Below are positions 2,405 through 55,111 of a DNA stretch of 64,000 nt, piece after piece. Every line of letters starts with the position of its first letter. Within the stretch, counting starts at the first letter, position 1. The position numbers and the translations under genes are program-made. The notes beneath the pieces were generated by a model that saw only the letters and a list, made by a program, of their open reading frames with translations, searched no databases and had not been told where the DNA came from. The stretch comes from an uncultured Oscillospiraceae bacterium (GTDB taxonomy: Bacteria; Bacillota; Clostridia; Oscillospirales; UBA644), in the NCBI GenBank assembly GCA_964448355.1, contig CAYUWC010000002.1, positions 1,995 to 65,994 of the forward strand, given 5' to 3'.

Positions 2405-2424
2405 TGGTCAAATTCTCCCGTAAA

Positions 2425-3036
2425 TCAGTCTTTTATATACTGTTTCATCGATAAATAATATGGTATTGCGGAAATAACGGAATAGATCGCTGCGATCCAG
2501 AGCAGGATCTGCGGGATCATAAGGTTGCAGACGTTTTGTCCGTTAACAACAGACGGGTCACCCAAAAGATCGGCGGGAAGAAGTGCTACGAACACGAACA
2601 TCGTGCCTATTGCGATGCCCTGAAGCGTTGTTTTGACTTTGCCCCAGTAATTTGCTGCCACGACCGTACCTTTGCCTGCCGCACCGAGGCGAAGACCCGT
2701 AACGAAAAACTCGCGTGCGAGGATAAGGACTACGGGGACAGACGAGAGCACGTCAAGCTCTATAAACGCCATAAGGACGCTTAAAACAAGAAGCTTGTCG
2801 GCAATGGGATCGAGGAATTTTCCGAAATTCGTCACGGCGTCGAAACGTCTTGCTATTTTTCCGTCAACGGCGTCGGACAGTATTGCGACCCCGAAAATAA
2901 TACCGCTTATAAGGAATCTTGTTTGAACGGTAAAGTTTGCGGTGATCGGGCTTTCAAGCATAAAAAGGAGGATAAACGGAACGAGGACCATTCGGAATAT
3001 ACATATCATATTCGGGACTTTTTTTATCATAATCAT
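2425..3036 (-). CDS. pgsA: CDP-diacylglycerol--glycerol-3-phosphate 3-phosphatidyltransferase
   Basis: 203-aa polytopic ORF carrying the CDP-alcohol phosphatidyltransferase motif DAVDGKIARRFDAVTNFGKFLDPIADK. It has a 4-nt overlap with the rimO stop. Confidence 0.85.
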   Translation of the reverse strand: MIMIKKVPNMICIFRMVLVPFILLFMLESPITANFTVQTRFLISGIIFGVAILSDAVDGKIARRFDAVTNFGKFLDPIADKLLVLSVLMAFIELDVLSSVPVVLILAREFFVTGLRLGAAGKGTVVAANYWGKVKTTLQGIAIGTMFVFVALLPADLLGDPSVVNGQNVCNLMIPQILLWIAAIYSVISAIPYYLSMKQYIKD

Positions 3037-25193: not shown

Positions 25194-26300
25194 ATGATAA
25201 CGGTTTCCGGCTTAACGAAGCGATACGGCAGCAAGATAGCGGTCAACAATGTCAGCTTCACGATCAATCAAGGCGAGATCGTCGGTCTTCTCGGCCCGAA
25301 CGGTGCGGGAAAGACAACGACGATGAACATGATAACGGGATACATATCTTCTCACGCGGGTAAAGTATCCATAAACGGGCACGATCTTCTTGAAGAACCG
25401 TCAAAAGCAAAGGAGTGCTTCGGATATCTTCCGGAGATCCCCCCTCTTTACCATGATATGACGGTTCGGGAATATCTCAGTTTTGTTTACAATCTTAAGG
25501 GTTGCAGCAAAAAAGAGAATATAAAGAAGAAAAAGGAGCATATCGCCGAGGTTTGCGAAGTTGTTAAGATCACGGGCGTATATAACAGGCTGATAAAAAA
25601 CCTTTCAAAAGGTTACAAACAGCGTGTCGGCCTTGCACAGGCGCTTATCGGGGACCCTCCGATCCTTATTCTCGACGAGCCTACCGCCGGTCTTGACCCC
25701 AAGGAGATCGTTGAGATACGAAATCTTATAAAACGTCTCGGAACGAGGCGAACGATAATCCTGTCCTCGCACATTCTTTCGGAGGTACAGGCTGTTTGCG
25801 AGCGTATAATAATAATGAACGAAGGCTTTGTCGTTATGGACGCGCTTGCCGATGATCTTACGATGCGTATGGGTGCAAACAGCAGATACGGCGTTCGTCT
25901 TGCGGCTCCGGAGGACGCGGATGTTATCGGGGTTCTCGGCTCTCTGCCCGGAATCGCAAAGATCGAATATATCGGCTCGTTTGAGCAGGGCACGTTCGAT
26001 TTTATAATCGAAGCCGAGAAGAAAACGGATATCCGCCGTATACTTTTCGACGAATGCGCAAAGAGAAACTGGTATATTTTGATGATAACACCTCTCGGTA
26101 TGTCGCTTGAAGACATCTTCCTGCAGCTTGTTTCTCAAAATGACGAGCAAAGGGCGCTTGCCGACAAAAAAGACGACAAGAAAAAGAAGAAAGATACAGA
26201 TAAAGAGGATATGACGGAAGCTCAAACAGAGCAAACCGATCCCGAAAACAATGATACGGAAGAACAAAAGGAGGAAGCAAACGATGACGGCAATAATTAA
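25194..26300 (+). CDS. ABC transporter ATP-binding protein (GldA-like, ABC-2 subfamily) with an acidic/lysine-rich C-terminal tail
   Basis: Walker A GPNGAGKTT, signature LSKGYKQRV and Walker B ILILDEPTAGLD are present. The last ~60 aa are low-complexity K/D/E-rich. Confidence 0.9.
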   Translation: MITVSGLTKRYGSKIAVNNVSFTINQGEIVGLLGPNGAGKTTTMNMITGYISSHAGKVSINGHDLLEEPSKAKECFGYLPEIPPLYHDMTVREYLSFVYNLKGCSKKENIKKKKEHIAEVCEVVKITGVYNRLIKNLSKGYKQRVGLAQALIGDPPILILDEPTAGLDPKEIVEIRNLIKRLGTRRTIILSSHILSEVQAVCERIIIMNEGFVVMDALADDLTMRMGANSRYGVRLAAPEDADVIGVLGSLPGIAKIEYIGSFEQGTFDFIIEAEKKTDIRRILFDECAKRNWYILMITPLGMSLEDIFLQLVSQNDEQRALADKKDDKKKKKDTDKEDMTEAQTEQTDPENNDTEEQKEEANDDGNN

Positions 26301-26988
26301 ACGAGAGCTTATCTCATTTTTCAAAAACCCGATCGGTTGGTTTGTTCTTGCGATATATTCTTTCCTTTCGGCGATACTGTTCACTCTTTTTGTTATTTGG
26401 CAAAACACGAGCTATCTCGGAGACTACTTCGGGTTCTGGCTGTTTTTTGTTGACATGGTAGTTGTCGGCATACTTTCGATGCGCTTTTTCAGCGAAGAAA
26501 AGAAAAACAAGACCGACCAATTGTTGTTAACATCGCCGATAAATCTTTATCAGCTCGTTTTGGGTAAATTTTTCGGCGCACTTATAATCTTTTTGATCTG
26601 CACGTCCGTAAACTTGTTTTACGTGCTTGTCGTAGACATTTTCGGAACGGTCGATTACGGTTGTCTTGCGACGAATCTTATCGGCACGGTACTTGCGCTT
26701 TGTGCGATAATCTCGATAGGTCTTTTCGTTTCCGCACTGACGGAGAGCGCCGTTGCGGCTGCGGCAGGTACGATGGCGATACTGTTTTTCATGTTCGTTG
26801 TCGACTTTTTCGCAATGTTCTTCCCGACGTGGCTTGCAAATATTTTAATGTACACAAATATTTATGCGCAATTCGATGATTTTACAAACGGTATTCTTAA
26901 TCTGCCCCCGATCGTTTATTATATCTCCGTAACGGTAATATTCTTGTTCCTTACGGTAAGAATGATAGAAAAACGCCGTTGGAACTAA
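26284..26988 (+). CDS. ABC-2-type transporter permease (GldF-like)
   Basis: MTAIIKRELISFFKNPIGWFVLAIY is the typical N-terminus, and the protein has about six TM helices. I prefer the ATG at 26284; the track ORF starts at 26251. Confidence 0.75.
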   Translation: MTAIIKRELISFFKNPIGWFVLAIYSFLSAILFTLFVIWQNTSYLGDYFGFWLFFVDMVVVGILSMRFFSEEKKNKTDQLLLTSPINLYQLVLGKFFGALIIFLICTSVNLFYVLVVDIFGTVDYGCLATNLIGTVLALCAIISIGLFVSALTESAVAAAAGTMAILFFMFVVDFFAMFFPTWLANILMYTNIYAQFDDFTNGILNLPPIVYYISVTVIFLFLTVRMIEKRRWN

Positions 26989-27001
26989 GGAGGTGCAAGA
27001 G

Positions 27002-28711
27002 ATGTCTAACGAAAATATTAACGAAAACGTAAATGCCGAAGCAAACGAGAGCATTAACGAAAACTCAACCGTTGAATCAAACGAACACATTGACGAAACC
27101 GTAACCGTTCAAGCGGAAGAAGTAACGAAAGTCGAACAGCCCGAGCAAGGTCCTGTCGCCGCTCTCGGCGGAAACGTATCGGATCAAAAAATACCGAGGA
27201 TAAACAAAAACAAGCTTAAATTCGGTTCTCTTGCGACCGTTTATACGATTCTTTTTATCGCGATTGTCATTGCGGTAAACGTTGTTATAAATCTTGCGGC
27301 GGACAGATTTACGTTAAAAGTGGACCTGACGTCCGAGCAGGTGTTCACTCTCGATCAGGAAACGCTCGATTTTCTTGCCGAGCTTGATTCGCCTGTTGAA
27401 ATAATCATTCTCGGCGATGAGCAAACGTATCGCTCCGCTACTTCAACATCGGGCGCTATTGCGCCGACGAGGTATGTTGTTGAAACGGTCGATAATTATA
27501 TAAGAGAGAGCGAAAATGTGACGGTACACTTTGTTGACCCGAGATATAATCCCAACTTTTTCAAGACGAGAAACATCACTCTCGACGACGGTACGGACAC
27601 GGCGGACAACATTTTTCTTGTTGTTTACTCGCCCGAAACGCAGAGATATCGTTTTATAAAAGACACTATATTCGACAATCTTATGTATGTCGGTCTCGAA
27701 AGACGTCTGACAGCGGGAATGTTGTACGTTACGGTCGAAGATATCCAAACGATAGCGATCGTAAAAGGTCACGGTGAGGAAACGTTGCCGTACTTCCAGG
27801 AAACGCTCAAAGACAACGGTTTTGATGTTAAATACATCACGATCCAGGAATTTGACGAGATCCCGGACTTTGTTTCGATCCTCGTTATCAACAATCCGAC
27901 AAGATCGTACAGCGACGACGATATCAACAAGATCGACGCATGGCTGTCAAACGACGAAGAGCTTGGGCACCATCTGATGGTCTTTGCAGATCTTGATATG
28001 CCGAAGAATCAAAAGCTTGAGGATTATCTTGCGGAGTGGGGGCTGTCGCTCGGTACGGAAAACGTATTCGACTACAACAACAGCTATGCCTTTACGAACG
28101 CATCGTATCCGCTTTTGAAAGTTACGTATGCCGATGATGCGACAACGCTTGCGGAAGATCTTGCGCGTGAGGGTTATTATCAGTTTGTTCAGCTCGGCAC
28201 GGCAAGAGCCGTCAACCGTCTTTACGAAAGCAAAGACAATCGAACGACATACAGCGTAATCGAAACTTTCGATACCGCATTTTCAAGATATACGGCGTCC
28301 ACAACGCTTGCTCCCTCCGATTGGAAAAACTTCAAAAAAGAAGATACCGACACTGTAGGTCCGTTCGATCTGAGTGCGATCTCCCGTCAGGTGCGCTACG
28401 AGGGAATGACGGAATTTTCGTCGAGCGTGTACCTTTGCGGCTCGACATCTTTTGTTGACGATTATTTTATCAGCAATATTGACGGTAACAACCAACAAAC
28501 TGCGGAATTTATGATAAAGCTGTCTAAATTCCTTGTTGCATCAAAACAATCTTACGATACGAATATTTTGCCCACGCAGCTGATCTTCGACACACTTGCG
28601 TTTACGACAACGACGGAATTTATAATTGTTGTATTCTGCCTTTTGATCGGCATTCCCGCGCTCTTGGCGATAACGGGTATAGTAGTGTGGAGAAAGCGTA
28701 AATTCTTATGA
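27002..28711 (+). CDS. GldG-like ABC-transporter auxiliary protein (large extracytoplasmic domain between N- and C-terminal TM helices)
   Basis: Its position after the GldA/GldF-like pair, an N-terminal TM (LATVYTILFIAIVIAVNVV) and a C-terminal TM (IIVVFCLLIGIPALLAITGIVVW) support the call. AAGGAGG lies 8 nt upstream of the ATG at 27002. Confidence 0.6.
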   Translation: MSNENINENVNAEANESINENSTVESNEHIDETVTVQAEEVTKVEQPEQGPVAALGGNVSDQKIPRINKNKLKFGSLATVYTILFIAIVIAVNVVINLAADRFTLKVDLTSEQVFTLDQETLDFLAELDSPVEIIILGDEQTYRSATSTSGAIAPTRYVVETVDNYIRESENVTVHFVDPRYNPNFFKTRNITLDDGTDTADNIFLVVYSPETQRYRFIKDTIFDNLMYVGLERRLTAGMLYVTVEDIQTIAIVKGHGEETLPYFQETLKDNGFDVKYITIQEFDEIPDFVSILVINNPTRSYSDDDINKIDAWLSNDEELGHHLMVFADLDMPKNQKLEDYLAEWGLSLGTENVFDYNNSYAFTNASYPLLKVTYADDATTLAEDLAREGYYQFVQLGTARAVNRLYESKDNRTTYSVIETFDTAFSRYTASTTLAPSDWKNFKKEDTDTVGPFDLSAISRQVRYEGMTEFSSSVYLCGSTSFVDDYFISNIDGNNQQTAEFMIKLSKFLVASKQSYDTNILPTQLIFDTLAFTTTTEFIIVVFCLLIGIPALLAITGIVVWRKRKFL

Positions 28712-30213
28712 CGAAAAAAAGGATCATCGGTATCGTTATCGCAATTGCGATCATCGGTCTGCTTATCGGCGCTGTGTTTTTCATGTTAACGTTCGACACT
28801 CTTCCCGAAGAAGAGGAGCCGTCCTCGGACCTGTCGATAGAATATGCGCGTCAAAGCTTGGTGCTGTACTCCTGCGTTATCGAAGATTTAAAGGCTATAC
28901 ACGTTAAAAATCCGACCGGCGAATATACCGTCAGCAAAGATGAAGACGGAAACATCAACTTCCTCGGCAGAGAGGGTGCACCGCTGTTGCCGTATTCGTC
29001 GGAGGGCCTTTATTCAAGCGTTGCGAAAGTAACGTGTGAAGCGTTGATCGAAGCGGAGACCGAGCATCTTGAGTATTATGGGCTTGACGAGCCGCAGGTC
29101 GTTATACAAATAGAGATGAAAGACGGAACCGTTACGGAGCTGCAGATAGGCGACGCCGCACCTAAGGGCGGCGGCTATTATATAAGAAACGCTTCCAACA
29201 CGGACGTATTTCTTGCGCAGACGTATTTCTCGGAACGTTTTCTGAAGAATCACGTACAGTATTATCAAACATCCATAAGCAAAGAGTTTGATTATACGGG
29301 ATTTGAATCCCTTTCGATCGAATATTCCGAAGCTTCCGGAAAAGACGATATATATATAAGGAAGACAACCGACGAAGAAGCGACCGATCTGAACTATTCC
29401 GGCGGTATGGTAATGGAAAAACCGTTCCATTGGGGCGGAGATTCAACGCCGATACAGGGTATCGTCGAGATCCTCGCAAGTCTTGAAGCGGACGATATAA
29501 TTACCGACACGCTCGACGAAGAGCTCCAAGCGCAGTACGGTTTTGACGATCCGACAAGAGTTGTTATAGAAGCGTGGGTAGACACGCAAAACTACGTAAG
29601 TCAGCTGACAAGTCTCGAAAACCCGTACTACGGTGCAACGGAGGACGGCTCTGATTTGTTGATACAAAGCGAATATCTTCTCGGTAACATAGACGGAAGA
29701 ACGCTTTATGTTATGTACGACGGCGAGCCTGTTATATACGGCGTTGATATCGACAATTTCGCGTTTGTCGATTACGGTGTCGATACGTACTGTCAAAGAA
29801 TAATCAATCTGAGAAACATCAATGATCTGAACGGTATTATTGTTGAACTTAACGGCGAAACATATTCGTTCTCGATCGAAAATCCCGATGCGGGCGACGA
29901 TATGGTCGTTATGTGGGACGGAACGACGAAGATCGATCCGGATCTGTTCAGAAGTTTCTACGTTTCCATTATCAGTGTTACGCACGACGGGCTTGCGTAC
30001 GAACCGGAGGAGGGGCTTGAACCCGATCTGAAAATAACGTACAAGGCTATCGACGGAACGGATACGGTGCTTGAATTTATACCGATAGAATCGAGAAAAA
30101 GTGTCCTTAAAGTTAACGGCGAGGGTAGATTCTTCGTGTATGTAAATAAAGAAAACAAAATAAAAAATGATCTGACAAAGCTTATAAACGGCGAAGAGAT
30201 CAAAAACTACTGA
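28708..30213 (+). CDS. DUF4340-like single-pass membrane protein associated with GldG-type ABC systems
   Basis: 501 aa with an N-terminal TM and a large extracytoplasmic region. The call rests on the recurrent four-gene neighbourhood and has not been verified by HMM. Confidence 0.5.
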   Translation: MTKKRIIGIVIAIAIIGLLIGAVFFMLTFDTLPEEEEPSSDLSIEYARQSLVLYSCVIEDLKAIHVKNPTGEYTVSKDEDGNINFLGREGAPLLPYSSEGLYSSVAKVTCEALIEAETEHLEYYGLDEPQVVIQIEMKDGTVTELQIGDAAPKGGGYYIRNASNTDVFLAQTYFSERFLKNHVQYYQTSISKEFDYTGFESLSIEYSEASGKDDIYIRKTTDEEATDLNYSGGMVMEKPFHWGGDSTPIQGIVEILASLEADDIITDTLDEELQAQYGFDDPTRVVIEAWVDTQNYVSQLTSLENPYYGATEDGSDLLIQSEYLLGNIDGRTLYVMYDGEPVIYGVDIDNFAFVDYGVDTYCQRIINLRNINDLNGIIVELNGETYSFSIENPDAGDDMVVMWDGTTKIDPDLFRSFYVSIISVTHDGLAYEPEEGLEPDLKITYKAIDGTDTVLEFIPIESRKSVLKVNGEGRFFVYVNKENKIKNDLTKLINGEEIKNY

Positions 30214-30241
30214 TTTTAAATCCAAAAAAAGGGGCGAAAAA

Positions 30242-31999
30242 ATGAAAATCGAGAATATTGACGAAATGAAGGTTTTTTGGCATACCTCATCTCACATTCT
30301 TGCACAGGCAGTCAAACGTCTGTATCCGAATGTTAAACTCACGATCGGTCCGGCGATAGAAAACGGTTTCTATTACGATTTTGACAGCGATGTTTCGTTC
30401 ACTCCGGAGATCCTCATAAAGATCGAAGCGGAGATGAAAAAGATCGTTAAAGAAAATCTCAAGGTCGAACGCTTTGTTCTTCCGCGTGAAGAAGCTCTCG
30501 AACTTATGAAGGACGAACCGTATAAGATCGAGCTTATCAACGAGCTTCCCGAAGACGAAGAAATAAGCTTTTACAAGCAGGGTGAATTTGTCGATCTTTG
30601 CGCAGGCCCGCACTTGCCGTACGCAAGTAAGGTTAAGGCTTTTAAGTTAACAAGCTGCACCGGTGCGTACTGGAGAGGCGATTCCAACAAGAAAATGCTT
30701 CAAAGAATATACGGAATATCTTTCCCCAACGCAACGCTGCTCGACCAGTATCTTACAGACGTTGAAGAGGCTAAAAAGAGGGATCATAACAAGCTCGGCA
30801 GAGAGCTTGAGCTGTTCACGACGTGCGATCTTATCGGTCAAGGTCTTCCCATACTTTTGCCCAAAGGCGCAAGGATAATCCAAACGCTTCAGCGTTTTGT
30901 CGAAGACGAAGAGCAAAAACGCGGTTGGCTTTTAACAAAGACCCCCTACATGGCAAAAAGCGATCTTTACAAGCTTTCCGGCCACTGGGATCATTATCAG
31001 GACGGTATGTTTGTTCTCGGCGACGAAACAAAGGACGACGAAGTCTTTGCTCTCCGCCCGATGACCTGCCCGTTCCAATATCAGGCATATCTTAACAGAG
31101 CGCGTTCTTACCGCGATCTTCCGCTTCGTTATAACGAGACTTCCACGTTGTTTAGAAACGAAGCGTCAGGCGAAATGCACGGCCTTATAAGAGTTCGTCA
31201 GTTCACCATTTCCGAAGGTCATCTGATGTGCTTGCCCGAACAGTTGGAAGAGGAGTTTAAAAACTGTCTCGAACTCGCCATTTATATGTTAAAAACACTC
31301 GGTCTTTACGAAGATGTTTCATATCGTTTCTCGCAGTGGGATCCCAACGACAGAGAAAAATACATCGGCACGCCCGAACAGTGGGACGAAGCTCAAAGTG
31401 TTATGCAAAAGATCCTCGATCATCTCGAGATTCCGTACAAGATCGGCATAGGCGAAGCTGCATTCTACGGACCCAAGCTCGATATCCAGATCAGAAACGT
31501 TTTCGGCAAGGAAGATACGCTGATCACTATCCAGATCGACCAAATGCTCGCCGAAAAATTCGGTATGGAATATGTCGATCGTGACGGAACGAAGAAAAAT
31601 CCGTACATCATTCACAGAACTTCTATCGGCTGCTATGAAAGAACGCTCGCTCTCCTTATCGAGAAGTATGCCGGCGCGTTCCCGACTTGGCTCGCGCCCG
31701 TTCAGGTCAAGATCCTCCCGATCGCCGACAGACATCAACCGTATACGTTTGAACTCAAAAAAGAACTCGAAAAATACGGCTTGCGCGTCGAAGTTGACGA
31801 CAGAAGCGAAAAGATAGGCTACAAGATCCGTGAAGCTCAAATGGAAAAAGTTCCTTTCATGCTCGTCGCAGGCGACAAAGAGCAGGAAGAAGGCACAGTC
31901 TCCGTCAGAGCAAGAAAAGAGGGCGACAAAGGCTCCATGCCCGTGTCCGACTTCATCGCACTTATCAAAGAGCATATCGACAATAAGATGATAGACTGA
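30242..31999 (+). CDS. thrS: threonine--tRNA ligase (short form starting in the editing domain)
   Basis: 585 aa. FWHTSSHILAQA marks the editing domain, RPMTCPFQ, FRNEASGEMHGLIRVRQF and the class II core are present, and an anticodon-binding C-terminus follows. No TGS-domain-length N-terminus is present. Confidence 0.93.
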   Translation: MKIENIDEMKVFWHTSSHILAQAVKRLYPNVKLTIGPAIENGFYYDFDSDVSFTPEILIKIEAEMKKIVKENLKVERFVLPREEALELMKDEPYKIELINELPEDEEISFYKQGEFVDLCAGPHLPYASKVKAFKLTSCTGAYWRGDSNKKMLQRIYGISFPNATLLDQYLTDVEEAKKRDHNKLGRELELFTTCDLIGQGLPILLPKGARIIQTLQRFVEDEEQKRGWLLTKTPYMAKSDLYKLSGHWDHYQDGMFVLGDETKDDEVFALRPMTCPFQYQAYLNRARSYRDLPLRYNETSTLFRNEASGEMHGLIRVRQFTISEGHLMCLPEQLEEEFKNCLELAIYMLKTLGLYEDVSYRFSQWDPNDREKYIGTPEQWDEAQSVMQKILDHLEIPYKIGIGEAAFYGPKLDIQIRNVFGKEDTLITIQIDQMLAEKFGMEYVDRDGTKKNPYIIHRTSIGCYERTLALLIEKYAGAFPTWLAPVQVKILPIADRHQPYTFELKKELEKYGLRVEVDDRSEKIGYKIREAQMEKVPFMLVAGDKEQEEGTVSVRARKEGDKGSMPVSDFIALIKEHIDNKMID

Positions 32000-32026
32000 T
32001 AAAATTCATTTTTTTGTTTAACAAAG

Positions 32027-32097
32027 ATCCACAGTACGCAAAGTATACCCCAAAGGCAAACACTTTCGGGAGTATACAACGGCTGTGGATTTTTTTT
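32027..32097 (+). terminator. rho-independent terminator after thrS
   Basis: ATCCACAG (32027-32034) pairs with CTGTGGAT (32083-32090), with further inner pairing (gtatacccc/gggagtatac). Seven T residues follow. Confidence 0.7.
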
Positions 32098-32201
32098 GTC
32101 TTTGTTTTTACAACCGAAAATATCAATGTAATTTAACACCATTTCGTCAAATCTACCAATAACTCGTATTTTAAAAACAGCATTTTTGTTAAACTTGAGT
32201 A

Positions 32202-32230
32202 TTGACTTTTTTTTCACGACATGATATAAT
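32202..32230 (+). promoter_or_regulatory. near-consensus sigma-A promoter of the small-protein/permease cassette
   Basis: TTGACT (32202-32207), then 17 nt, then TATAAT (32225-32230). AAGGAGG lies 8 nt before the S1 ATG. Confidence 0.65.
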
Positions 32231-32260
32231 TAAAATATCAAACATAAGGAGGCATTTTTC

Positions 32261-32629
32261 ATGAAGAAAAATATAATTTTTACAGTGGTCCTTTTGACAT
32301 TGGTCATCTCTGTTTTTGCCGTAACATCGGTTCAGGTGTTGGGCTTAACAGATGCGCTCACCATAACCGTGTATACCAATTCGGGATATATTGCAGATGA
32401 TCCGGATGAAATACCGCTATACTTTGCCGAGACGGAAACATCCGGAGCAATGCCCCCGACAACGCACTATGCATATGCATACATATATAAAGACGGTGTA
32501 CAAGTCGGCTATGATCAAGGGCGTTTAAACGCCACATCTTCGCATGCATATGCGACATATCAACCGGCAATGCCGAATGAGAATTTCACTACAGACCATG
32601 GATATATAGTTTTTAATGAATTACAGTGA
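32261..32629 (+). CDS. small secreted protein S1 (unassigned family; paralog of S2 and S3)
   Basis: 122 aa. It has a Sec-type signal peptide (MKKNIIFTVVLLTLVISVFAVTSVQ), a strong RBS, and shares the C-terminal motif AYATYQPAMPNENFTTDHGY with S2 and S3. Confidence 0.8.
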   Translation: MKKNIIFTVVLLTLVISVFAVTSVQVLGLTDALTITVYTNSGYIADDPDEIPLYFAETETSGAMPPTTHYAYAYIYKDGVQVGYDQGRLNATSSHAYATYQPAMPNENFTTDHGYIVFNELQ

Positions 32630-32639
32630 TTGAAAAATC

Positions 32640-32690
32640 GGAGATAAAGAAGGCAAACCCGTTCGCCTTCTTTATCTCCTGCGTTTTTTT
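32640..32690 (+). terminator. intercistronic rho-independent terminator/attenuator between S1 and P1
   Basis: A perfect 15-bp stem, GGAGATAAAGAAGGC (32640-32654) with GCCTTCTTTATCTCC (32665-32679), has a 10-nt loop and is followed by tgcgTTTTTTT. Confidence 0.75.
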
Positions 32691-32705
32691 AGGGAGAATT
32701 TGCGT

Positions 32706-34229
32706 ATGATCTTTACGGTTTATTTGAGGGAAGCATGGAAAAATATAACGAAAAAACCGTTGCTTTCAACTCTTACAATTTTATTTTTAACGTTTACCGT
32801 CCTTTTTTTCTGTGTTTTTGTTAGAATTTCGGATATAAAAACCATAACGACCGACAATTTCCAAAAATCGGAAGCATATATTCAATATAAGCAATATAAT
32901 CTGACTACCACTATAAAAGGCAATACTATCGGATCGCTTAATGCAACCGATCCCTTTACATATATGTACCCTCCCGATGAAGATGAAGTAGAACTCAGAG
33001 CTAATACTCTTGCATACTTTGATGAATTCAGCGATTTTTTTGACACTCTTTTCACTTTGGATTCCGAAGATATAAAAGTTGTTTACATGGGTTGGGGACA
33101 AACAACACTTATCGAAAACTACAAAGGCGCAAAGGATTTGGAAGAATCCTACAACAAAAAATATCGAAGAGAAGAGATTTCCGATTATAAAAAACAAGGT
33201 ATAGACACCACATTTCTCGAAACTGGCGCTTATGTACACACGATATACGTGGGCAAAAGCTTTTTTGAATATGAAAAGCTTAATTTTGCACAAGGCGGAG
33301 TGCCGACGGAAGAAGATCTCGAATATAAGTTTATTGCGGACGAAGAGACCCCCGTATTGGAAATCCCGGTAATTGTCGGTTCCGCATTTGGCGAAGATTA
33401 TGAAGTCGGTGATATTTTAAGCCCTGTAAATGATCCGTATATGGGTCCCCTTGAATCGCAGTGGAAATATTTTCCTGTAAATTATCGTCAAGAATATTGT
33501 GCCCGATATAGGATAGTCGGTATTTTAAGTGCGGACAACGCCATAAGTAACAGCCTCGGCTCAACTATTTCCGACTTTTCGAAATACATAATTGCTCCTT
33601 ACCATTTTTTAACTGACCCTGCATTTACCGAAAAATATACGGATAATCAAAAGATAGTTCTGTTAGACGACCTGATCAAAGATATAACAAAAGTAAAACT
33701 TTATATAAACAGAGAAAAAGAAGCTGAATGCGTTTCGATTTTATGGGATATGATCGATAATTCTTCTCTTAAAGATTATCTGAAGCCGCACACGTTTGAC
33801 GTTCTTAACGAGATATCGATAACAATCGCGAACGCAAGGGATACTTCTTACAAAGTGCTCGCAATAGCTATCGCGGTATTCTGTTCTATCGGTGTTTTTA
33901 TAATGATATTAAACAATCAAAAAGACAACATCCGAGATTACAGTGTACATATGATATCGGGCGCAAGCAAGGCGGATATACTTTTGACAGGTGTTGTTGA
34001 AACATTGATATATGTGCTGATCGCAGATATATTGATGCAATATCCGAGGATATACATGATGTTCGGCTGGCAACAGAATTCTCCGCTCGGAACATGGATG
34101 GGAATGTGGAGCGGAATGATCCCTATCGTTATAATAGAAAATCTTGTTATTATCCTCATTGCGTTTATTTGTAACTACATTTCGGTTTCGAAGATCAGTT
34201 TTTCCGAAGTTCTGAAAAGAAAGGATTAA
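32706..34229 (+). CDS. FtsX/MacB-type permease P1 (four TM helices, large extracytoplasmic domain); no cognate ATPase adjacent
   Basis: It has an N-terminal LREAWKNITKKPLLSTLTILFLTF TM and a ~340-aa extracytoplasmic region. The C-terminal three-TM block carries HMISGASKADIL, an FtsX-domain-like helix. GGGAG lies 9 nt upstream of the ATG at 32706; the track ORF starts at the TTG at 32700. Confidence 0.75.
   Translation: MIFTVYLREAWKNITKKPLLSTLTILFLTFTVLFFCVFVRISDIKTITTDNFQKSEAYIQYKQYNLTTTIKGNTIGSLNATDPFTYMYPPDEDEVELRANTLAYFDEFSDFFDTLFTLDSEDIKVVYMGWGQTTLIENYKGAKDLEESYNKKYRREEISDYKKQGIDTTFLETGAYVHTIYVGKSFFEYEKLNFAQGGVPTEEDLEYKFIADEETPVLEIPVIVGSAFGEDYEVGDILSPVNDPYMGPLESQWKYFPVNYRQEYCARYRIVGILSADNAISNSLGSTISDFSKYIIAPYHFLTDPAFTEKYTDNQKIVLLDDLIKDITKVKLYINREKEAECVSILWDMIDNSSLKDYLKPHTFDVLNEISITIANARDTSYKVLAIAIAVFCSIGVFIMILNNQKDNIRDYSVHMISGASKADILLTGVVETLIYVLIADILMQYPRIYMMFGWQQNSPLGTWMGMWSGMIPIVIIENLVIILIAFICNYISVSKISFSEVLKRKD
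32728..32818. repeat. 91-bp tract identical to 35291-35381 (5' ends of P1 and P2)
   Basis: Base-by-base comparison by eye found no differences. The offset is 2,563 bp. Confidence 0.85.
33726..34120. repeat. 395-bp tract identical to 36289-36683 (TM2-TM4 region of P1 and P2)
   Basis: Base-by-base comparison by eye found no differences. The track's spurious antisense ORFs 33898-34095 and 36461-36658 have identical translations. The offset is 2,563 bp. Confidence 0.9.
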
Positions 34230-34459
34230 AAGATGAAAGCCCTTTTGTGATTGTCTCCCCCCGAACGTTCATACCTATACCCGCTCTTGTTTTCGTCAAT
34301 TCGACCGATATATAAACAAAAATCGGCGGTTTTGCTGAACATTGGCAGAAGAACTCGTCTAGTTATAACGAAATCGCAAACCAATTTATTCTTTTTCAAG
34401 TAGATTCAACAATCATATCATCACATAATTTCCAATCCAAAAGGAGGTGAAAAATCACA

Positions 34460-34795
34460 ATGAAAAGAAAGATTTACGCATTTGCACTTTTAGCAATCGT
34501 TATCTCCGTCGCAGTAGCTTTTTCTGTTCAATCTTTTGCAGATCTTGCACACCGGGTTATACTTGAGACTTACAATGGATATATTTACACAAGTATACCG
34601 AAATATTACGCAGAAACAAAATCAAATTCATACGGGAACATTGAACACAGAGCTGTTGCAAAGATTTTTTTGGATGATGTACTCGTTGCAACAGATATCG
34701 GAGAAAAAGATTACACATCCTACGCATATGCAACATACCAACCGGCAATGCCCAATGATAATTTTACTACATGGCATAGTTATATTTTAGGATAA
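34460..34795 (+). CDS. small secreted protein S2 (paralog of S1 and S3)
   Basis: 111 aa. It has the signal peptide MKRKIYAFALLAIVISVAVAFSVQSFA, the RBS AAAGGAGGTG, and the motif AYATYQPAMPNDNFTTWHSY. Confidence 0.8.
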   Translation: MKRKIYAFALLAIVISVAVAFSVQSFADLAHRVILETYNGYIYTSIPKYYAETKSNSYGNIEHRAVAKIFLDDVLVATDIGEKDYTSYAYATYQPAMPNDNFTTWHSYILG

Positions 34796-34812
34796 AAAGG
34801 AGAAGATGATTC

Positions 34813-35172
34813 ATGAAAAAAAATATTATTTTTTCAGTATTTCTTTTAACTCTAATCATTTCGATCTTTTCTTGCACTGCGATACAAATGATCGGATGGG
34901 ATGATGATGAACGGATAGTTGTAACTTCAGATTACGGATATCTACCGACAGATATACCATCATATTTCGCCCGAACAACAACAGCCTCAGCTCCTCCCAT
35001 CAAACATTACGCTATTGCGGTTATTTACAAAGGTGACATAACAGAAGTAGTTGCGTCAAATTATGGTCGAACAGGAACTGCTTCTAGTGCATACGCATCA
35101 TGGCAACCGGCAATGCCCGGAGAAGGTTATTTTACCGAACATGGATATAGAATAACCGAAATTCTCGACTAA
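34813..35172 (+). CDS. small secreted protein (possible lipoprotein) S3 (paralog of S1 and S2)
   Basis: 119 aa. Its signal peptide MKKNIIFSVFLLTLIISIFSC is nearly identical to that of S1 but ends in a Cys. The motif is AYASWQPAMPGEGYFTEHGY, and the gene is 17 nt downstream of S2. Confidence 0.8.
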   Translation: MKKNIIFSVFLLTLIISIFSCTAIQMIGWDDDERIVVTSDYGYLPTDIPSYFARTTTASAPPIKHYAIAVIYKGDITEVVASNYGRTGTASSAYASWQPAMPGEGYFTEHGYRITEILD

Positions 35173-35183
35173 GTAAAAGTAAA

Positions 35184-35219
35184 CATAAAGAAGAAGACAA
35201 TCCTGTCTTCTTCTTTATG
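35184..35219 (+). promoter_or_regulatory. intercistronic perfect 16-bp stem-loop between S3 and P2 (no U-tract)
   Basis: CATAAAGAAGAAGACA (35184-35199), loop ATCC, then TGTCTTCTTCTTTATG (35204-35219). It shares the ATAAAGAAG core with the S1-P1 terminator. Confidence 0.6.
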
Positions 35220-35268
35220 GAGAATAACGTTCCGATGCTTTATAATTTAACAGAAGGAGATGTTCCAT

Positions 35269-36792
35269 ATGCTATTTGCGGTCTATTTAAGGGAAGCATG
35301 GAAAAATATAACGAAAAAACCGTTGCTTTCAACTCTTACAATTTTATTTTTAACGTTTACCGTCCTTTTTTTCTGTGTTTTCGCAAGGATATCTACGATC
35401 AAAACTATAACCGAAGACAATCTTCAAAAATCGGAAGCATATATTCAATATAAGCAATATAGTTTTAATACAGATACAAAGGGAGTTGGAGTTGGAAGTT
35501 ATAATTCTACCGACGATAAGTTTACATATTTGTACCCTCCCGATGAAGATGAAGTAGAAATCAGAACTGAAGCTCTCGGCTACTTTGACGAACTAAGTGA
35601 TTTTTTCGATACAATTTTCACCTTGGATTCCGAAGATATAAAAGTCGTTTATATGAGTGGCGAATGGACGACTCTTATCGTCAATTCAAAAGGTGCAAAG
35701 AATTTGGAAGAAACTTACAACAAGAATTTTCGAAAAGAAGATATCTCAGAATATAAAAAACAAGGTATAGACACCACATTCCTTGAAACCGGCGCTTATG
35801 TGAAAACTATATTCGTAAGCCAAAGCTTTTTTGACCACGAAAAGCTTAATTTTGCAAAAGGCGGGGTTCCGACAGAAGAAGATCTTAATTATAAATTTAT
35901 CTCGGACGAAGAAACCCCTGTAATTGAAATACCGGTAATTGTCGGTTCCGCATTTGCCGAAGATTATGAGGTCGGGGATATTATAGAACGTGCATATGAG
36001 CCTTATGAATCTCCTGAAACAGATTGGCAAAGATACTCGAGCGATTACCATCAGCAGATGTTTTGCAAATACAGGATAGTCGGTATTTTAAGTGAAGACA
36101 ATGCCATAACCAACTGTTACGGCTCAAGTATTTCAAACCTATCGAAGAATATAATCGTTCCTTACCATTTTTTAACCGACCCTGCATTTACCGAAAAATA
36201 TACGGATAATCAAAAGATAGTTAGAGTAGACGATCTATTCTGGGAAATAACGCAAGTAAAACTTTATATAAACAGAGAAAAAGAAGCGGAATGCGTTTCG
36301 ATTTTATGGGATATGATCGATAATTCTTCTCTTAAAGATTATCTGAAGCCGCACACGTTTGACGTTCTTAACGAGATATCGATAACAATCGCGAACGCAA
36401 GGGATACTTCTTACAAAGTGCTCGCAATAGCTATCGCGGTATTCTGTTCTATCGGTGTTTTTATAATGATATTAAACAATCAAAAAGACAACATCCGAGA
36501 TTACAGTGTACATATGATATCGGGCGCAAGCAAGGCGGATATACTTTTGACAGGTGTTGTTGAAACATTGATATATGTGCTGATCGCAGATATATTGATG
36601 CAATATCCGAGGATATACATGATGTTCGGCTGGCAACAGAATTCTCCGCTCGGAACATGGATGGGAATGTGGAGCGGAATGATTCCGATCGTTATAGCTG
36701 AAAACCTCATTATAATTTTAATAGCGTTCATTTGCAATTACATTTCGGTTTCAAAAATCAGTTTTTCCGAAGTTTTAAAGAGGAAGGATTAA
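35269..36792 (+). CDS. FtsX/MacB-type permease P2 (paralog of P1)
   Basis: It has the same length and layout as P1, with identical N-terminal TM and TM2-TM4 segments and a diverged extracytoplasmic domain. AAGGAG lies 9-10 nt upstream of the ATG at 35269; the track ORF starts at 35260. Confidence 0.75.
   Translation: MLFAVYLREAWKNITKKPLLSTLTILFLTFTVLFFCVFARISTIKTITEDNLQKSEAYIQYKQYSFNTDTKGVGVGSYNSTDDKFTYLYPPDEDEVEIRTEALGYFDELSDFFDTIFTLDSEDIKVVYMSGEWTTLIVNSKGAKNLEETYNKNFRKEDISEYKKQGIDTTFLETGAYVKTIFVSQSFFDHEKLNFAKGGVPTEEDLNYKFISDEETPVIEIPVIVGSAFAEDYEVGDIIERAYEPYESPETDWQRYSSDYHQQMFCKYRIVGILSEDNAITNCYGSSISNLSKNIIVPYHFLTDPAFTEKYTDNQKIVRVDDLFWEITQVKLYINREKEAECVSILWDMIDNSSLKDYLKPHTFDVLNEISITIANARDTSYKVLAIAIAVFCSIGVFIMILNNQKDNIRDYSVHMISGASKADILLTGVVETLIYVLIADILMQYPRIYMMFGWQQNSPLGTWMGMWSGMIPIVIAENLIIILIAFICNYISVSKISFSEVLKRKD
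35291..35381. repeat. 91-bp tract identical to 32728-32818
   Basis: See the partner entry at 32728-32818. Confidence 0.85.
36289..36683. repeat. 395-bp tract identical to 33726-34120
   Basis: See the partner entry at 33726-34120. Confidence 0.9.
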
Positions 36793-36795
36793 GCG

Positions 36796-37950
36796 ATGAA
36801 GAAGTATTTAAATTTCACAAATTTTTTAATCGTATTAAGTATTGCGATAATGACGGTATTTCTTATCGTTATTGTCAATCAGGAATTGATAAACAGCAGA
36901 AACGAGCGTGAGTTCAACAACTTTTACGGCGGAAACAGCCGAAGAATAAGTATCGATTCCGACGCAAGAAAATTTTCTTTTGACGTAACGGGGCTTTCGG
37001 AGAATTACGTTATATACGGATTGTTAAGCAATTCGAGTGAAAAGAACTATTTGGCGGATTCCGTAAGGACTGTTTACGGCGAAGGTAATTTCCCGATACC
37101 GACAATAAAGGCAGGCAGATTTTTTACTGCTGAAGAGCTTTTGTCGGAAGAGGCGTTATGTGTTGTGGGCCAAACGACGTTCAATCGTTCTGCGTATACA
37201 AAAGACGAGGCTGCGCCGACGGAAGCCGTTGCAACAGATAGCGAGACGGAATATATCGAAGACGAAGAGATCGAAGAAAAGGTTTTTGACGAAACAAAAG
37301 AATATTACTATTTGCACAGCGGTATCGAGTACAAGATCATCGGTGTGTTCGGAATGAACAAAACGAGTGATATCGACACGATAACAATGCTCAATTTTGG
37401 CGGATACATTGCAAGCAAGGGTTCGTCGTACAAATTGACGTATCATATTGATTCGTTTAACACCGAAGAGATCGACACTGTATTTACGGCACTCGGCGAA
37501 AGGGTAGTTGAGGCCGAAGGAGAGTGGAGAGAGATATTGTATTCGTCGCCGTTAAAGTCGATCGACGTATATTACACGTATATTTATCTGCTCGGCTGTA
37601 TAATATTGATACTTAATCTTTTGATAGTATCGTTCAGATATGCGGCGAAGAACGAATATCGTATGTGCATCAAAAAGATGCTCGGCGTGACGTCTTTCCG
37701 CTTGGCTGCGGAGACTTGCGGCTCGTTTGCGTGCATATCTTTTATAGGCATGGGCATAGGAATATGGATCTTTTCGATGTTATCGAAAACGCAATTTTTC
37801 GAAAGCAGCGGCCTTGATTATTTTGCCGGTTTGACGTGGCAGACGATACTGTTTACGGCTGTGATCGTTTATGCGGTATCGCTTTCGATATCCGTTTTCC
37901 CGCTCATTCGTATATACAAATTAGATACAAGTGCTCAAATACGAGGATAG
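36796..37950 (+). CDS. FtsX/MacB-type permease P3 (shorter and divergent)
   Basis: 384 aa with an N-terminal TM. Its extracytoplasmic domain has MacB-like strings IKAGRFFTAEELLSEEALCVVGQ and YKIIGVFG, plus an acidic insert. The C-terminal three-TM block carries KKMLGVTSFRL. It starts 4 nt after the P2 stop. Confidence 0.7.
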   Translation: MKKYLNFTNFLIVLSIAIMTVFLIVIVNQELINSRNEREFNNFYGGNSRRISIDSDARKFSFDVTGLSENYVIYGLLSNSSEKNYLADSVRTVYGEGNFPIPTIKAGRFFTAEELLSEEALCVVGQTTFNRSAYTKDEAAPTEAVATDSETEYIEDEEIEEKVFDETKEYYYLHSGIEYKIIGVFGMNKTSDIDTITMLNFGGYIASKGSSYKLTYHIDSFNTEEIDTVFTALGERVVEAEGEWREILYSSPLKSIDVYYTYIYLLGCIILILNLLIVSFRYAAKNEYRMCIKKMLGVTSFRLAAETCGSFACISFIGMGIGIWIFSMLSKTQFFESSGLDYFAGLTWQTILFTAVIVYAVSLSISVFPLIRIYKLDTSAQIRG

Positions 37951-38004
37951 AAAAATCGCTTTTTTGTTAAAAACGCCGAAAAAGCCGGTGTAAAAAAAAT
38001 TTGC

Positions 38005-38033
38005 TTGCAAAATAAAAAAGAATAGTATATAAT
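38005..38033 (+). promoter_or_regulatory. candidate sigma-A promoter of the fucosidase gene
   Basis: TTGCAA (38005-38010), then 17 nt, then TATAAT (38028-38033). Confidence 0.5.
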
Positions 38034-38076
38034 AATGTTAAAACATACCATAAAGCGATAAGGAGCTTATTTGATT

Positions 38077-39360
38077 ATGATGCAGGAATGGTTTAAAGAG
38101 GCGAAACTCGGCATATTCATTCATTACGGAATATACAGCTGCGGCAATTGGTCGGAATCGTGGTCTTTCCACAACGGTCATGTTCCGTACGACAGATACA
38201 TGGCACAGTGCAACGAATTTACGGCAAGCAAATACGATCCCGAAAAGTGGGCTGAGCTGTTCAAAAAAGCAGGCGCGAACTATGTTGTTATGACAACAAA
38301 GCATCACGACGGTGTTGCGTTGTTCGACACAAAATACAGCGATTTGAGTGTTGTTAAAAAAACGCCGGCAGGCCGCGACCTTGTAGCACCGTATGTTAAA
38401 GCGGTAAGAGATGCGGGAATGCACGTCGGACTTTACTACTCGCTCATCGATTGGTCGGACTTACGTTACAGAAGCGTATATCCCGACGGACAAAGTCCCG
38501 AAAACTACAATAAAAACGACATATACGGCTGCCCGATGGGTGGACCGGAAGATCCCGAAAAGTGGGAAGAATTTCTCAAGTTTAACGACGATCAGATGCG
38601 TGAGATCCTCACAAATTACGGAACTGTCGATCTTATCTGGTTCGACGGAGACTGGGAGCGTTCCGCAAAGCAGTGGAGAGCAGACAAAGTACGCGAATTT
38701 TTGCACAACATCAACCCGAACATTGTTATAAATTCGAGATTGCAGGGTTACGGCGACTATGACACACCCGAACAGGGTGCGCCGATCATTGCGCCGACAC
38801 GTCCGTGGGAATTCTGCACGACCATCAACGACAGCTGGGGCTACAGAAAGTTCGATAACGATTACAAGACATCGAGAATGGTCATAAGAATGTTCTGCGA
38901 TTGTTTAACAATGGGCGGAAACATGCTTTTGGACGTAGGCCCGAAAGAAGACGGAACGATCGATCCGCGCCAAGAGCAGATACTTCTCGATCTCGGCTCG
39001 TGGATCAGCGACAACAAAGAAGCTGTTTACGGTACCGAAAGAGGTATAAACTACAGATATTTCCTCGGCGGAAGCACTGTTTCCAAAGATAAGAAGAATC
39101 TTTATCTTATTTGTTACGACAAGCCCGATGAGCATATTTGTCTTAAGGGATTGTTAAGCCCCGTAAAGCGTGTATCCGTTCTTCACTCGAACGAGACGCT
39201 TCAATACCGTTACACGGGCATGGGCTTTAACAACGGAACGCTTTGGATCAACATCGCAAAAGATCAGCTGCACCGTTACGCAACGGTCATCAAGATCGAG
39301 CTTGAAGAGGAGCTTAAGCTCAGCGGAAGCGCCGGTCAGGTCGTAACCAACAACGACTAA
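38077..39360 (+). CDS. alpha-L-fucosidase (GH29 family)
   Basis: WFKEAKLGIFIHYGIYS, TTKHHDGVALFDT, LIWFDGDWE and a C-terminal beta domain are present. AGGAG lies upstream. The start is ATG at 38077 or TTG at 38071. Confidence 0.85.
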   Translation: MMQEWFKEAKLGIFIHYGIYSCGNWSESWSFHNGHVPYDRYMAQCNEFTASKYDPEKWAELFKKAGANYVVMTTKHHDGVALFDTKYSDLSVVKKTPAGRDLVAPYVKAVRDAGMHVGLYYSLIDWSDLRYRSVYPDGQSPENYNKNDIYGCPMGGPEDPEKWEEFLKFNDDQMREILTNYGTVDLIWFDGDWERSAKQWRADKVREFLHNINPNIVINSRLQGYGDYDTPEQGAPIIAPTRPWEFCTTINDSWGYRKFDNDYKTSRMVIRMFCDCLTMGGNMLLDVGPKEDGTIDPRQEQILLDLGSWISDNKEAVYGTERGINYRYFLGGSTVSKDKKNLYLICYDKPDEHICLKGLLSPVKRVSVLHSNETLQYRYTGMGFNNGTLWINIAKDQLHRYATVIKIELEEELKLSGSAGQVVTNND

Positions 39361-48629: not shown

Positions 48630-48736
48630 AGGCGGGTCCTGCGTGACTTTGCGTGCGAACCATGTCAGGCGGGGAACCGAGCAGCATTAAGCACATACAA
48701 AGGGCACAGCAGGGAACCCGTCTTTTTATTTTTTTT
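48630..48736 (+). ncRNA. ffs: signal recognition particle RNA, small (4.5S-like) type, including its terminator U-tract
   Basis: GUCAGGCGGGGAACCGAGCAGC matches the conserved domain IV motif (cf. E. coli GUCAGGUCCGGAAGGAAGCAGC) and has a GGAA tetraloop. The 5' GGCGGGUCCUGCGUG pairs with the 3' CACAGCAGGGAACCCGUC. A T-run lies at 48723-48736. The gene sits directly upstream of dnaX, as in many Firmicutes. Confidence 0.8.
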
Positions 48737-54901: not shown

Positions 54902-55111
54902 TGTTTTGTCACCTCCCAATGTAACTTATGCCTTTAGGTCTCCTGAATAAATATAAAAAGAAAGCTCTTTCAAAACAGCACTGTCTTGAAAGAGCGAAAT
55001 AATTCCGTAAATAATGTTATCTTAAGAAATTAAATCTCTTCCTCGACAGGCGTACATTAAGACGGTAAACCGTCGCCTGTTGTCTCAGGAAACGCAACAC
55101 TCATTTATGAG
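54902..55111 (-). ncRNA. probable ribosomal protein L10 (rplJ) leader / autoregulatory 5' UTR
   Basis: It is a ~200-nt structured untranslated region between a perfect promoter and rplJ. It contains stem-loops such as CTCTTTCAAgacagtgctgttTTGAAAGAG and ACAGGCGacggtttaccgtcttaatgtaCGCCTGT on the coding strand. I have not verified it against a covariance model. Confidence 0.5.

Follow-up and report, generated by a model that had tools for sequence, protein, structure and literature searches.

A lineage-restricted cassette of small secreted proteins and FtsX-type permeases without an ATPase gene, a possible variant of a Sec-dependent bacteriocin/immunity module

Loci of the lactococcin 972 (Lcn972) type encode a Sec-dependent, unmodified, beta-sandwich protein, followed by genes for membrane proteins that are implicated in immunity or transport (PMC4055356; PMC11796350), and the pneumococcal Lcn972-like scb locus has natural deletions in a fraction of strains (PMC11796350). 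Our subject is a cassette of six genes from an uncultured gut member of the Clostridia, an Oscillospiraceae bacterium, located within a 64,000-nucleotide (nt) stretch of DNA that was analyzed as a whole and is referred to as the window (assembly GCA_964448355.1, contig CAYUWC010000002.1, positions 1,995 to 65,994). The cassette encodes three predicted small secreted proteins (S1, S2 and S3) and three permeases (P1, P2 and P3, with P used for the P1/P2 type). The six open reading frames were found at the coordinates claimed for them in the original prediction, all on the plus strand between thrS and a gene for a glycoside hydrolase family 29 (GH29) fucosidase:

32261..32629, + strand: S1, 122 amino acids (open reading frame list, AGGAGG ribosome-binding site, paralogy, signal-like N-terminus)
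32706..34229 (alternative TTG start at 32700), + strand: P1, 507 amino acids, PermB-type FtsX/MacB-like permease
34460..34795, + strand: S2, 111 amino acids (open reading frame, paralogy, orthologue in relatives)
34813..35172, + strand: S3, 119 amino acids (open reading frame, paralogy, orthologue in relatives)
35269..36792 (alternative ATG start at 35260), + strand: P2, 507 amino acids, PermB-type permease
36796..37950, + strand: P3, 384 amino acids, PermA-type FtsX/MacB-like permease, starting 4 nt past the P2 stop

The reading that we favor, and to which we give roughly an even chance, takes the cassette for a Sec-dependent bacteriocin/immunity module in a chromosomal form that lacks an ATPase gene and varies in its S genes, its function being proposed from sequence and models. 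As part of this reading, the cassette is best explained as a lineage-restricted derivative of a four-gene module, X-PermA-PermB-ATPase, carried on plasmids of Bacillota. The plasmid module, which is apparently unstudied, has the organization of Lcn972-type bacteriocin production/immunity loci. The bacteriocin/immunity reading is the most economical one because P is homologous to PermB and P3 to PermA, because the module is the cargo of a small Sarcina plasmid, and because full, decayed and permease-only versions of the locus exist among relatives. We know of no characterised bacteriocin from this lineage.

The plasmid module was reached through P3. A tblastn search of plasmids with P1 gave no match at E<=1e-3, and a search of PLSDB with P3 matched an 'ABC transporter permease' (ABC, ATP-binding cassette) on the Paenibacillus polymyxa plasmid pPPM1a. 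On pPPM1a of P. polymyxa M1, PPM_RS26845-26860 encode, in order, X (134 amino acids, bearing a Sec-type signal), PermA (350 amino acids), PermB (428 amino acids) and an ABC ATPase (219 amino acids). The X-PermA-PermB-ATPase module was present in seven of the eight plasmid loci inspected, the eighth running off the end of its record, and its hosts are Paenibacillus, Sarcina sp. JB2 (p6), Bacillus cereus, B. mycoides and Bacillus sp. PM8313; the recurrent four genes were seen in the set L096-L103, from plasmids of Paenibacillus, Sarcina, the B. cereus group and Priestia. Typical sizes are ~130-145 amino acids for X and ~312-350 and ~425-428 amino acids for the permeases, followed by an ATPase of LolD/FtsE/Lcn972 type. 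Apart from its replication genes, Sarcina p6 (11.3 kb) has no annotated cargo but the module (HH195_RS12275-12290). The module ATPases fall in the LolD/FtsE/MacB group and have TIGR03608 (L_ocin_972_ABC) as their first or second match at 218-229 bits, below the model's cut-off of 254.85. In UniRef one X member goes by 'Bacteriocin' and another by 'Lactococcin 972 family bacteriocin', while RefSeq has 'hypothetical'; the UniRef names are labels given by the source rather than tests.

The link between the window cassette and this module lies in the permeases. An hhalign comparison of P1, P2 and their relative P0008 with seven plasmid PermB proteins gave a probability of 98.5% and an E value of 1.9e-15 over 401 collinear columns, covering the full length, N-terminal helix and C-terminal (L)LK(R/K)K(D/E) tail included, and the comparison of P3 and its orthologue P0010 with seven PermA proteins gave a probability of 98.5% and an E value of 2.2e-15 over 291 columns. 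Pairwise BLASTP reached 1e-8 for P against PermB and 6e-8 for P3 against PermA. At the level of sequence, these alignments show P1 and P2 to be full-length homologues of PermB, and P3 a full-length homologue of PermA. P and PermB have the motifs IPVI.GS..Y..GD and HLISGA(S/T) in common, and the best-conserved stretch between them is the cytoplasmic loop between transmembrane (TM) segments TM2 and TM3, which reads NIRDYSVHMISGAS in P and NIKKYAIHLISGAT in PermB (YSVHMISGAS vs YAIHLISGAT).

Any relationship between S and X would be much more distant. When the two profiles were compared, the S-X hhalign score of 18.2 exceeded those of all 400 column-shuffled S alignments (mean 10.1, standard deviation 2.0, maximum 17.9), and relaxing the alignment gives 70 collinear columns that include W(S/D)E...GY, AE, HY.A, D.GR and a C-terminal aromatic strand. 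Both families also have the same 18-residue spacing between an invariant His and the Gly of a D-x-G-R/K motif, and S agrees with X in gene position and in the size class of the protein. S is possibly a very diverged X-type protein. WW-domain matches of X in the PDB were judged spurious.

S1-S3 are paralogous, as proposed, with 45-51% identity over their whole length, 34 invariant columns, two invariant His, many Tyr and the invariant C-terminal motif AYA(T/S)(Y/W)QPAMP. Each has a K/R-rich N-terminus and a hydrophobic helix of 17-20 residues with small residues at -3/-1 (VQSFA, then D, in S2), the signal peptide being judged by hydropathy and by these -3/-1 residues. The predicted mature proteins are 84-94 amino acids long (9.4-10.5 kDa), free of Cys and acidic, with isoelectric points (pI) of 4.1-5.1; the values for S1 are 94 amino acids and pI 4.1. 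A lipoprotein reading of S3 (IFSC) was rejected, the Cys not being conserved in S1, S2 or the orthologues. S2 is orthologous to a 112-amino-acid S of relatives (59-64% identity) and S3 to a 115-amino-acid S, P0011 (56% identity). S was modelled as an all-beta fold of six strands, with moderate confidence (predicted local distance difference test, pLDDT, 67; predicted template-modelling score, pTM, 0.62). Foldseek searches of the PDB and BFVD with this model gave no match at E<0.005, and the C1q/TNF-like, carbohydrate-binding module (CBM) and tail-fibre structures that came up were not significant (template-modelling score <=0.56). S1-S3 have no Pfam match at E<=1, hence no reported match to DUF1093/YxeA, and PDB sequence searches with the P, P3, S and X profiles found nothing significant.

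The permeases have the predicted layout of one N-terminal and three C-terminal TM segments enclosing a large outside domain. By hydropathy, the segments of P1 and P2 lie at residues ~17-45, 380-405, 422-445 and 465-500 and those of P3 at ~4-34, 255-285, 307-330 and 343-374, and the outside domain between TM1 and TM2 measures ~335 amino acids in P1/P2 and ~225 in P3. P1 and P2 are 82% identical. P3, grouped with both by its layout in the original prediction, is not a close paralogue of them: neither BLASTP nor hhalign finds any similarity, and by sequence P3 belongs to a different permease subfamily. An AlphaFold model of P1 was discarded (pLDDT 32). The expectation that FtsX and MacB_PCD models would match P1-P3 was borne out as far as weak matches go and failed at the gathering threshold of the FtsX model: Pfam FtsX (PF02687) scores 24.8 bits on P3 (E 2.5e-5, model positions 4-118 of 120; cut-off 25.5) and 17.5 bits, partial and below the gathering score, on P1/P2, and MacB_PCD scores 18.8 bits on P3, whose orthologue P0010 bears precomputed PF02687 and PF12704 matches. 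At the Pfam thresholds, then, P1-P3 formally fail the FtsX hidden Markov models, an outcome that the original prediction had named as counting against it; we override it because of the topology and the homology to annotated ABC permeases that adjoin a type VII ATPase. The TM2-TM3 loop of P also aligns, weakly and in the correct register, to the same loop of MacB. This loop lies within a tract shared by the two P genes:

33726..34120 = 36289-36683, + strand: 395 nt with 100% DNA identity between P1 and P2

The tract covers TM2, the cytoplasmic coupling loop and TM3, whereas the synonymous divergence (dS) elsewhere is 0.3-1.5, and it is a gene-conversion tract confined to this TM2/coupling-loop/TM3 region. 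The outside domain of P1/P2 is diverging, with nonsynonymous divergence (dN) reaching 0.33 in the codon windows 51-100 and 251-300.

Our searches place the cassette in a single clade. An exhaustive HMMER search with the mature-S profile, over 1.84 billion representatives of ~15 billion proteins, found this clade only, apart from P0012, a repeat protein at E 7e-4 that we consider a spurious extra match. A word-indexed search of 5.8 billion proteins added two S clusters from within the clade, and such searches returned a single cluster each for P (P0008, 60% identity) and P3 (P0010, 70% identity). Scanning by pattern found nothing with P in genome_contigs or with either S or P3 in metagenome_contigs, and S, P and P3 are in none of the 80 related species representatives that were fetched, the closest (L008) included. 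Judged on sequence, S1-S3 are an orphan family, nearly unique in public data. The fetched relatives are mostly metagenome-assembled genomes with Clostridia, Oscillospiraceae or Acutalibacteraceae labels, many from animal or human gut; the window's thrS is 92% identical to that of the metagenome-assembled genome CAMZEM01 and 75-83% identical to those of the other fetched genomes.

Within the clade the S content of the locus varies. Four related metagenome contigs (L001, L002, L090 and L092) have thrS-S(112)-S(115)-P(502)-P3(366) at the same chromosomal site, where the numbers are lengths in amino acids. The S2-S3-P2-P3 part of the window thus corresponds to the unit of its relatives, and S1-P1 to an extra copy. 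L091 is organized like L001, with its first S gene frameshifted (1265-1604), and L088 and L089 have thrS-P-P3-fucosidase without any S gene and with a separate promoter-like site before P. In L002 the P3-type gene is truncated to 284 amino acids (2385-3239); this truncation and the L091 frameshift would be either decay of single cassette genes or assembly errors. Co-occurrence of S and P, which had been predicted, is conserved in relatives: every S gene adjoins a downstream P gene, or an S gene that does, where the contig extends far enough. Protein identity between the window and its relatives is 83-94% for the flanks, 57-64% for S, 60% for P and 69% for P3. The P genes of contigs with and without S differ by a dS of only 0.1, so S content changes quickly around a stable P-P3 core, and since L088 and L089 keep P-P3 without S, the permease pair is the core and S is dispensable. 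The combination of full, frameshifted-S and permease-only loci resembles the population pattern typical of toxin/immunity loci such as pneumococcal scb.

Permease pairs that stand alone also favor an alternative that we consider unlikely, in which P/P3 would be an exporter of the Bce/YknYZ/MacB type that gives resistance or detoxification by removing foreign antimicrobial peptides or other envelope-active compounds, and S its non-toxic extracytoplasmic accessories. YxeA, encoded with YxdLM in Bacillus subtilis, is a comparable case. In L088 and L089, P-P3 stands without S behind a promoter-like site of its own, which indicates a role of the permeases that is independent of S; the FtsX/MacB-type topology and coupling loop have been kept, and the acidic S proteins are unlike typical cationic bacteriocins. 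On the other hand, S gives no Pfam match at E<=1 and hence none to YxeA, no two-component system or ATPase adjoins the genes as is typical of Bce-type modules, and the variable S copy number, the S pseudogene and the carriage of the related module on small plasmids are a better fit to toxin/immunity dynamics.

The layout of the cassette allows a prediction of its expression under the bacteriocin/immunity reading. Three signals were read from the DNA:

32202..32230, + strand: sigma-70-like promoter, TTGACT-17-TATAAT with an extended -10 TG, 11/12 matches, 31 nt upstream of S1
32640..32690, + strand: hairpin between S1 and P1, 18-bp stem at 32640-32679 and then TGCGTTTTTTT, candidate attenuator/terminator
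35184..35219, + strand: hairpin between S3 and P2, 16-bp stem without a plus-strand T-run

The promoter is the best match within 31900-38200; it is a match to the consensus only, and the total number of promoter sites is not above the shuffled expectation. The hairpin past S1 was called on the minus strand by the scan; on the plus strand its T-run begins 4 nt past the stem. L001 has an analogous hairpin in the gap from its last S gene to P, and good Shine-Dalgarno sequences precede all the cassette genes. Given the promoter before S1 and the hairpins, we predict an abundant S transcript with partial read-through to the permease genes. Strong expression of the structural gene and lesser expression of the immunity/transport genes that follow it is usual in bacteriocin operons. 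In the mechanism that we propose, S1-S3 would be made at a high level from a strong promoter and exported through Sec, and the released S, acidic ~10-kDa beta-sandwich proteins, would act as bacteriocin-like effectors outside the cell, while the hairpins past S1 and S3 would let less transcript reach the permease genes. A PermB-type P1 or P2 would pair with the PermA-type P3, as LolC does with LolE, and the large outside domains of the P/P3 complex would handle S or its target on the outward side of the cell membrane and so protect the producer, with the energy coming from a type VII ABC ATPase whose gene lies elsewhere. We infer the antimicrobial activity of S, the immunity role and heterodimerisation of P/P3, and the supply of an ATPase in trans.

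The ATPase is the part of this mechanism that the locus itself does not provide. The sole ABC ATPase in the 64 kb, at 25194-26300, is GldA-like and heads an ABC-2/GldG-like/DUF4340 operon that is also found upstream of thrS in relatives without the cassette, so the description of the cassette as ATPase-less holds within the window; no cognate LolD/FtsE/MacB-type ATPase was found in the cassette, none that would suit in the 64 kb, and none in the related contigs. In type VII ABC transporters (MacB/LolCDE) the ATPase docks on a coupling helix within the TM2-TM3 loop. The conservation of this loop therefore suggests that P has retained ATPase docking and that the ATPase is encoded elsewhere. A different view, which we hold as a tentative possibility at low probability, is that S1-S3 are a new family of acidic, Sec-exported ~10-kDa beta-sandwich effectors of one gut Clostridia lineage whose permease pair is independent of a dedicated ATPase; the pair would then be either an energy-independent immunity or receptor complex or one that borrows a housekeeping type VII ATPase.

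Several results count against the bacteriocin/immunity reading and were weighed together. S1-S3 have no match at E<=1 to Pfam Lactococcin_972 or NCBIfam TIGR01653, and aligning the S profile with hhalign to Lcn972, in a sequence confirmed to match PDB 2lgn_A exactly, gives a probability of 0.5%; all Lcn972 sequence models fail on S, in agreement with the earlier remark that S1-S3 do not resemble the mature Lcn972 peptide. None of the eight X proteins matches the Pfam or NCBIfam Lcn972 models at E<=1 either, and the X profile gives a probability below 1% in hhalign against the Lcn972 sequence, so the 'bacteriocin' label of the plasmid module rests on UniRef names and context. The S-X comparison itself has a probability of 3% and an E value of 0.013 over 24-25 columns, which does not establish homology. 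Mature S is acidic where Lcn972 has a pI of 9.7; the order of the permease genes is inverted relative to the plasmid module, with the PermB type before the PermA type in the window; and an ATPase gene in cis is missing here and in every related contig. With an S model of moderate confidence, the Foldseek match to PDB 9hkj, which carries the label 'Lactococcin 972 family bacteriocin', is non-significant (probability 0.96 and template-modelling scores 0.47/0.51, but E 0.11 and root-mean-square deviation 11.7 Å), and this likeness is suggestive only. Finally, the roles given here to S, X and the permeases are predictions from sequence and models. The likeness to Lcn972 loci that the original prediction drew stands for the permeases, through their homology to a module whose X bears an Lcn972 name in UniRef, and has no support in the sequence of S; every sequence test places the cassette outside the Lcn972 family. 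Looking for 'formosin' brought up no relevant literature. Our confidence in the bacteriocin/immunity reading stays near even because S is acidic, the ATPase is missing and all the Lcn972 sequence tests failed.

The missing ATPase could also mean that the cassette is a decaying remnant, without transporter function and persisting by chance or hitch-hiking. An ATPase in cis is absent from all versions, and in two relatives a gene appears damaged, S by a frameshift in one and P3 by truncation in the other. All the genes in the window are intact, however, and have dN/dS values of 0.09-0.5 across saturated synonymous divergence, the mark of purifying selection and so of real genes; P-P3 has been kept at the same locus in lineages with a thrS dS of ~1, and P has been duplicated and homogenised by gene conversion. 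We regard the remnant explanation as improbable.

No better placed is the proposal that S1-S3 are surface or nutrient proteins, for example glycan- or metal-binding jelly rolls, that are functionally unrelated to the permeases and are mere neighbours beside the fucosidase. The weak Foldseek likeness to C1q/TNF-like and CBM-like jelly rolls, the invariant His and many Tyr, and the GH29 gene immediately downstream of the cassette are in its favor; the fold matches are all non-significant (E>=0.005), and the constant position of S upstream of P, mirrored by that of X in the plasmid modules, makes this proposal doubtful in our judgment. Least probable of all is the original prediction's other suggestion, a pair of the FtsEX kind for mechanotransmission or envelope sensing, with the permease controlling a wall-acting S after the manner of FtsEX with EnvC, PcsB, CwlO or RipC: there are an FtsX-like topology, a large outside domain and an adjoining secreted protein, but S is compact and all-beta, without a coiled coil or a LytM, CHAP or NlpC/P60 domain (Pfam and structure model), the window has no FtsE, S is dispensable in close relatives, and a low-GC, lineage-restricted cassette that is absent from 80 representatives is unlike a core division function.

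The edges of the cassette and its neighbours are as follows:

30242-31999: thrS, upstream neighbour, tRNA-synt_2b and HGTP_anticodon domains
32027..32097, + strand: thrS terminator, inverted repeat ATCCACAG...CTGTGGAT and then a T8 run, read from the sequence
32173..32193, strand unassigned: left copy of a 21-nt imperfect direct repeat, AAAAACAGCATTTTTGTTAAA
37951..37971, strand unassigned: right copy of the 21-nt imperfect direct repeat, AAAAATCGCTTTTTTGTTAAA
38071-39360: GH29 fucosidase, downstream neighbour, Alpha_L_fucos domain

The thrS terminator forms the upstream edge. The fucosidase gene begins 120 nt past P3, and P3 and the fucosidase follow each other in the same way in L088 and L089. 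The GC content of the block is 38.0%, against 46.7% and 47.3% in the flanks. The two copies of the direct repeat match at 18/21 positions and bracket the cassette almost exactly; they could be an insertion relic or a chance match within AT-rich spacers, and their significance is uncertain. The intergenic DNA of the relatives is too diverged for insertion or deletion boundaries to be rebuilt, and a search for the empty site found that the closest representative, L008 (thrS 92%), has different genes past thrS, with no clean empty site. PHROGs and PADLOC searches of the cassette had no match, and phage and defence-system origins were therefore dropped. Rfam has no RNA family inside the cassette; its gathering-level matches in the window are a bacterial small SRP RNA (SRP, signal recognition particle) at 48630-48726 (+) and a ribosomal protein L10 leader at 54949-55107 (-).

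The neighbourhood shows signs of rearrangement. Downstream of thrS, L008 (11855-15253) encodes a 588-amino-acid putative lipoprotein and open reading frames of 231 and 205 amino acids that look RsmG-like and HAD-like by eye, and its secA, comM and murE are in inverted order compared with the window; the region past thrS is for these reasons taken as a rearrangement point. In L090 (3426-5454) the P3-type gene is followed by a 289-amino-acid polytopic protein, TadB/C-like by eye and without a Pfam match, and beyond it a protein with DUF4320 and alpha-amylase matches. Because L090 has no fucosidase directly past its P3-type gene, the downstream boundary of the locus varies. On the other side (25194-31999), thrS starts 28 nt past the DUF4340 stop, with no T-box leader shown by Rfam, and from this spacing thrS appears to be co-transcribed with the operon of GldA-like ATPase, ABC-2 permease, GldG-like and DUF4340 genes. 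The same GldA-like/ABC-2/GldG-like/DUF4340/thrS order is shared by L008-L010.

If the bacteriocin/immunity reading is true, a nearly unique set of genes would be tied to a broader, unstudied branch of Sec-dependent bacteriocins with two FtsX-type permeases. In nature the loci carry 0, 1, 2 or 3 S genes and 1-2 PermB-type genes, a series that would help to match permease domain to secreted protein, and they would let one ask whether an FtsX-fold permease can do without an ATPase of its own. Should S be antimicrobial, its acidity would be unusual among Sec-dependent bacteriocins, and an FtsX pair that is independent of an ATPase, if that view were true, would be a new way of working for FtsX-fold proteins. 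Nothing here overturns current understanding; the S family is near-unique and the ATPase-less FtsX pair is odd.

Set beside known systems, the cassette shares something with each. With FtsEX and its partners it has in common an FtsX-like membrane protein that adjoins a secreted one, and differs in having no FtsE, in an S without coiled-coil or hydrolase domain, and in being accessory and variable. The four-TM subunit whose TM1 and TM2 enclose a large outside domain is also found in LolCDE and MacB; like LolCDE, the cassette has adjacent genes for two different permease subunits, its TM2-TM3 coupling-loop motif aligns to MacB, and there are weak MacB_PCD and FtsX Pfam matches. These scores are below threshold, a LolD/MacB-type ATPase in cis is lacking, and the window locus is Gram-positive, lineage-restricted and accessory, without a lipoprotein-sorting or efflux context. 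The Lcn972 locus (lcn972-orf2-orf3, on pBL1) and streptococcin scbABC likewise have a gene for a secreted protein followed by genes for membrane proteins, and partial loci. Mature S at 84-94 amino acids is longer than the 66 of Lcn972, the membrane partner in the window is two separate four-TM FtsX-type proteins (P1-P3 have no DUF1430 or bact_immun_7tm match at E<=1), and orf2-orf3 and scbBC include an ABC ATPase where the window cassette has none. In its proposed working the cassette is closest to an Lcn972-type locus, and the ATPase that it lacks is a defining component of that kind of locus and of the plasmid module alike. Compared with the plasmid module, where the ATPase is the fourth gene, the window cassette is without the ATPase gene, encodes as many as three S and two PermB-type proteins, carries two insertions in the outside domain of P, and is chromosomal, at the fixed thrS-fucosidase site; the two have in common the gene for a small protein with a Sec-type signal immediately upstream of the permease pair.

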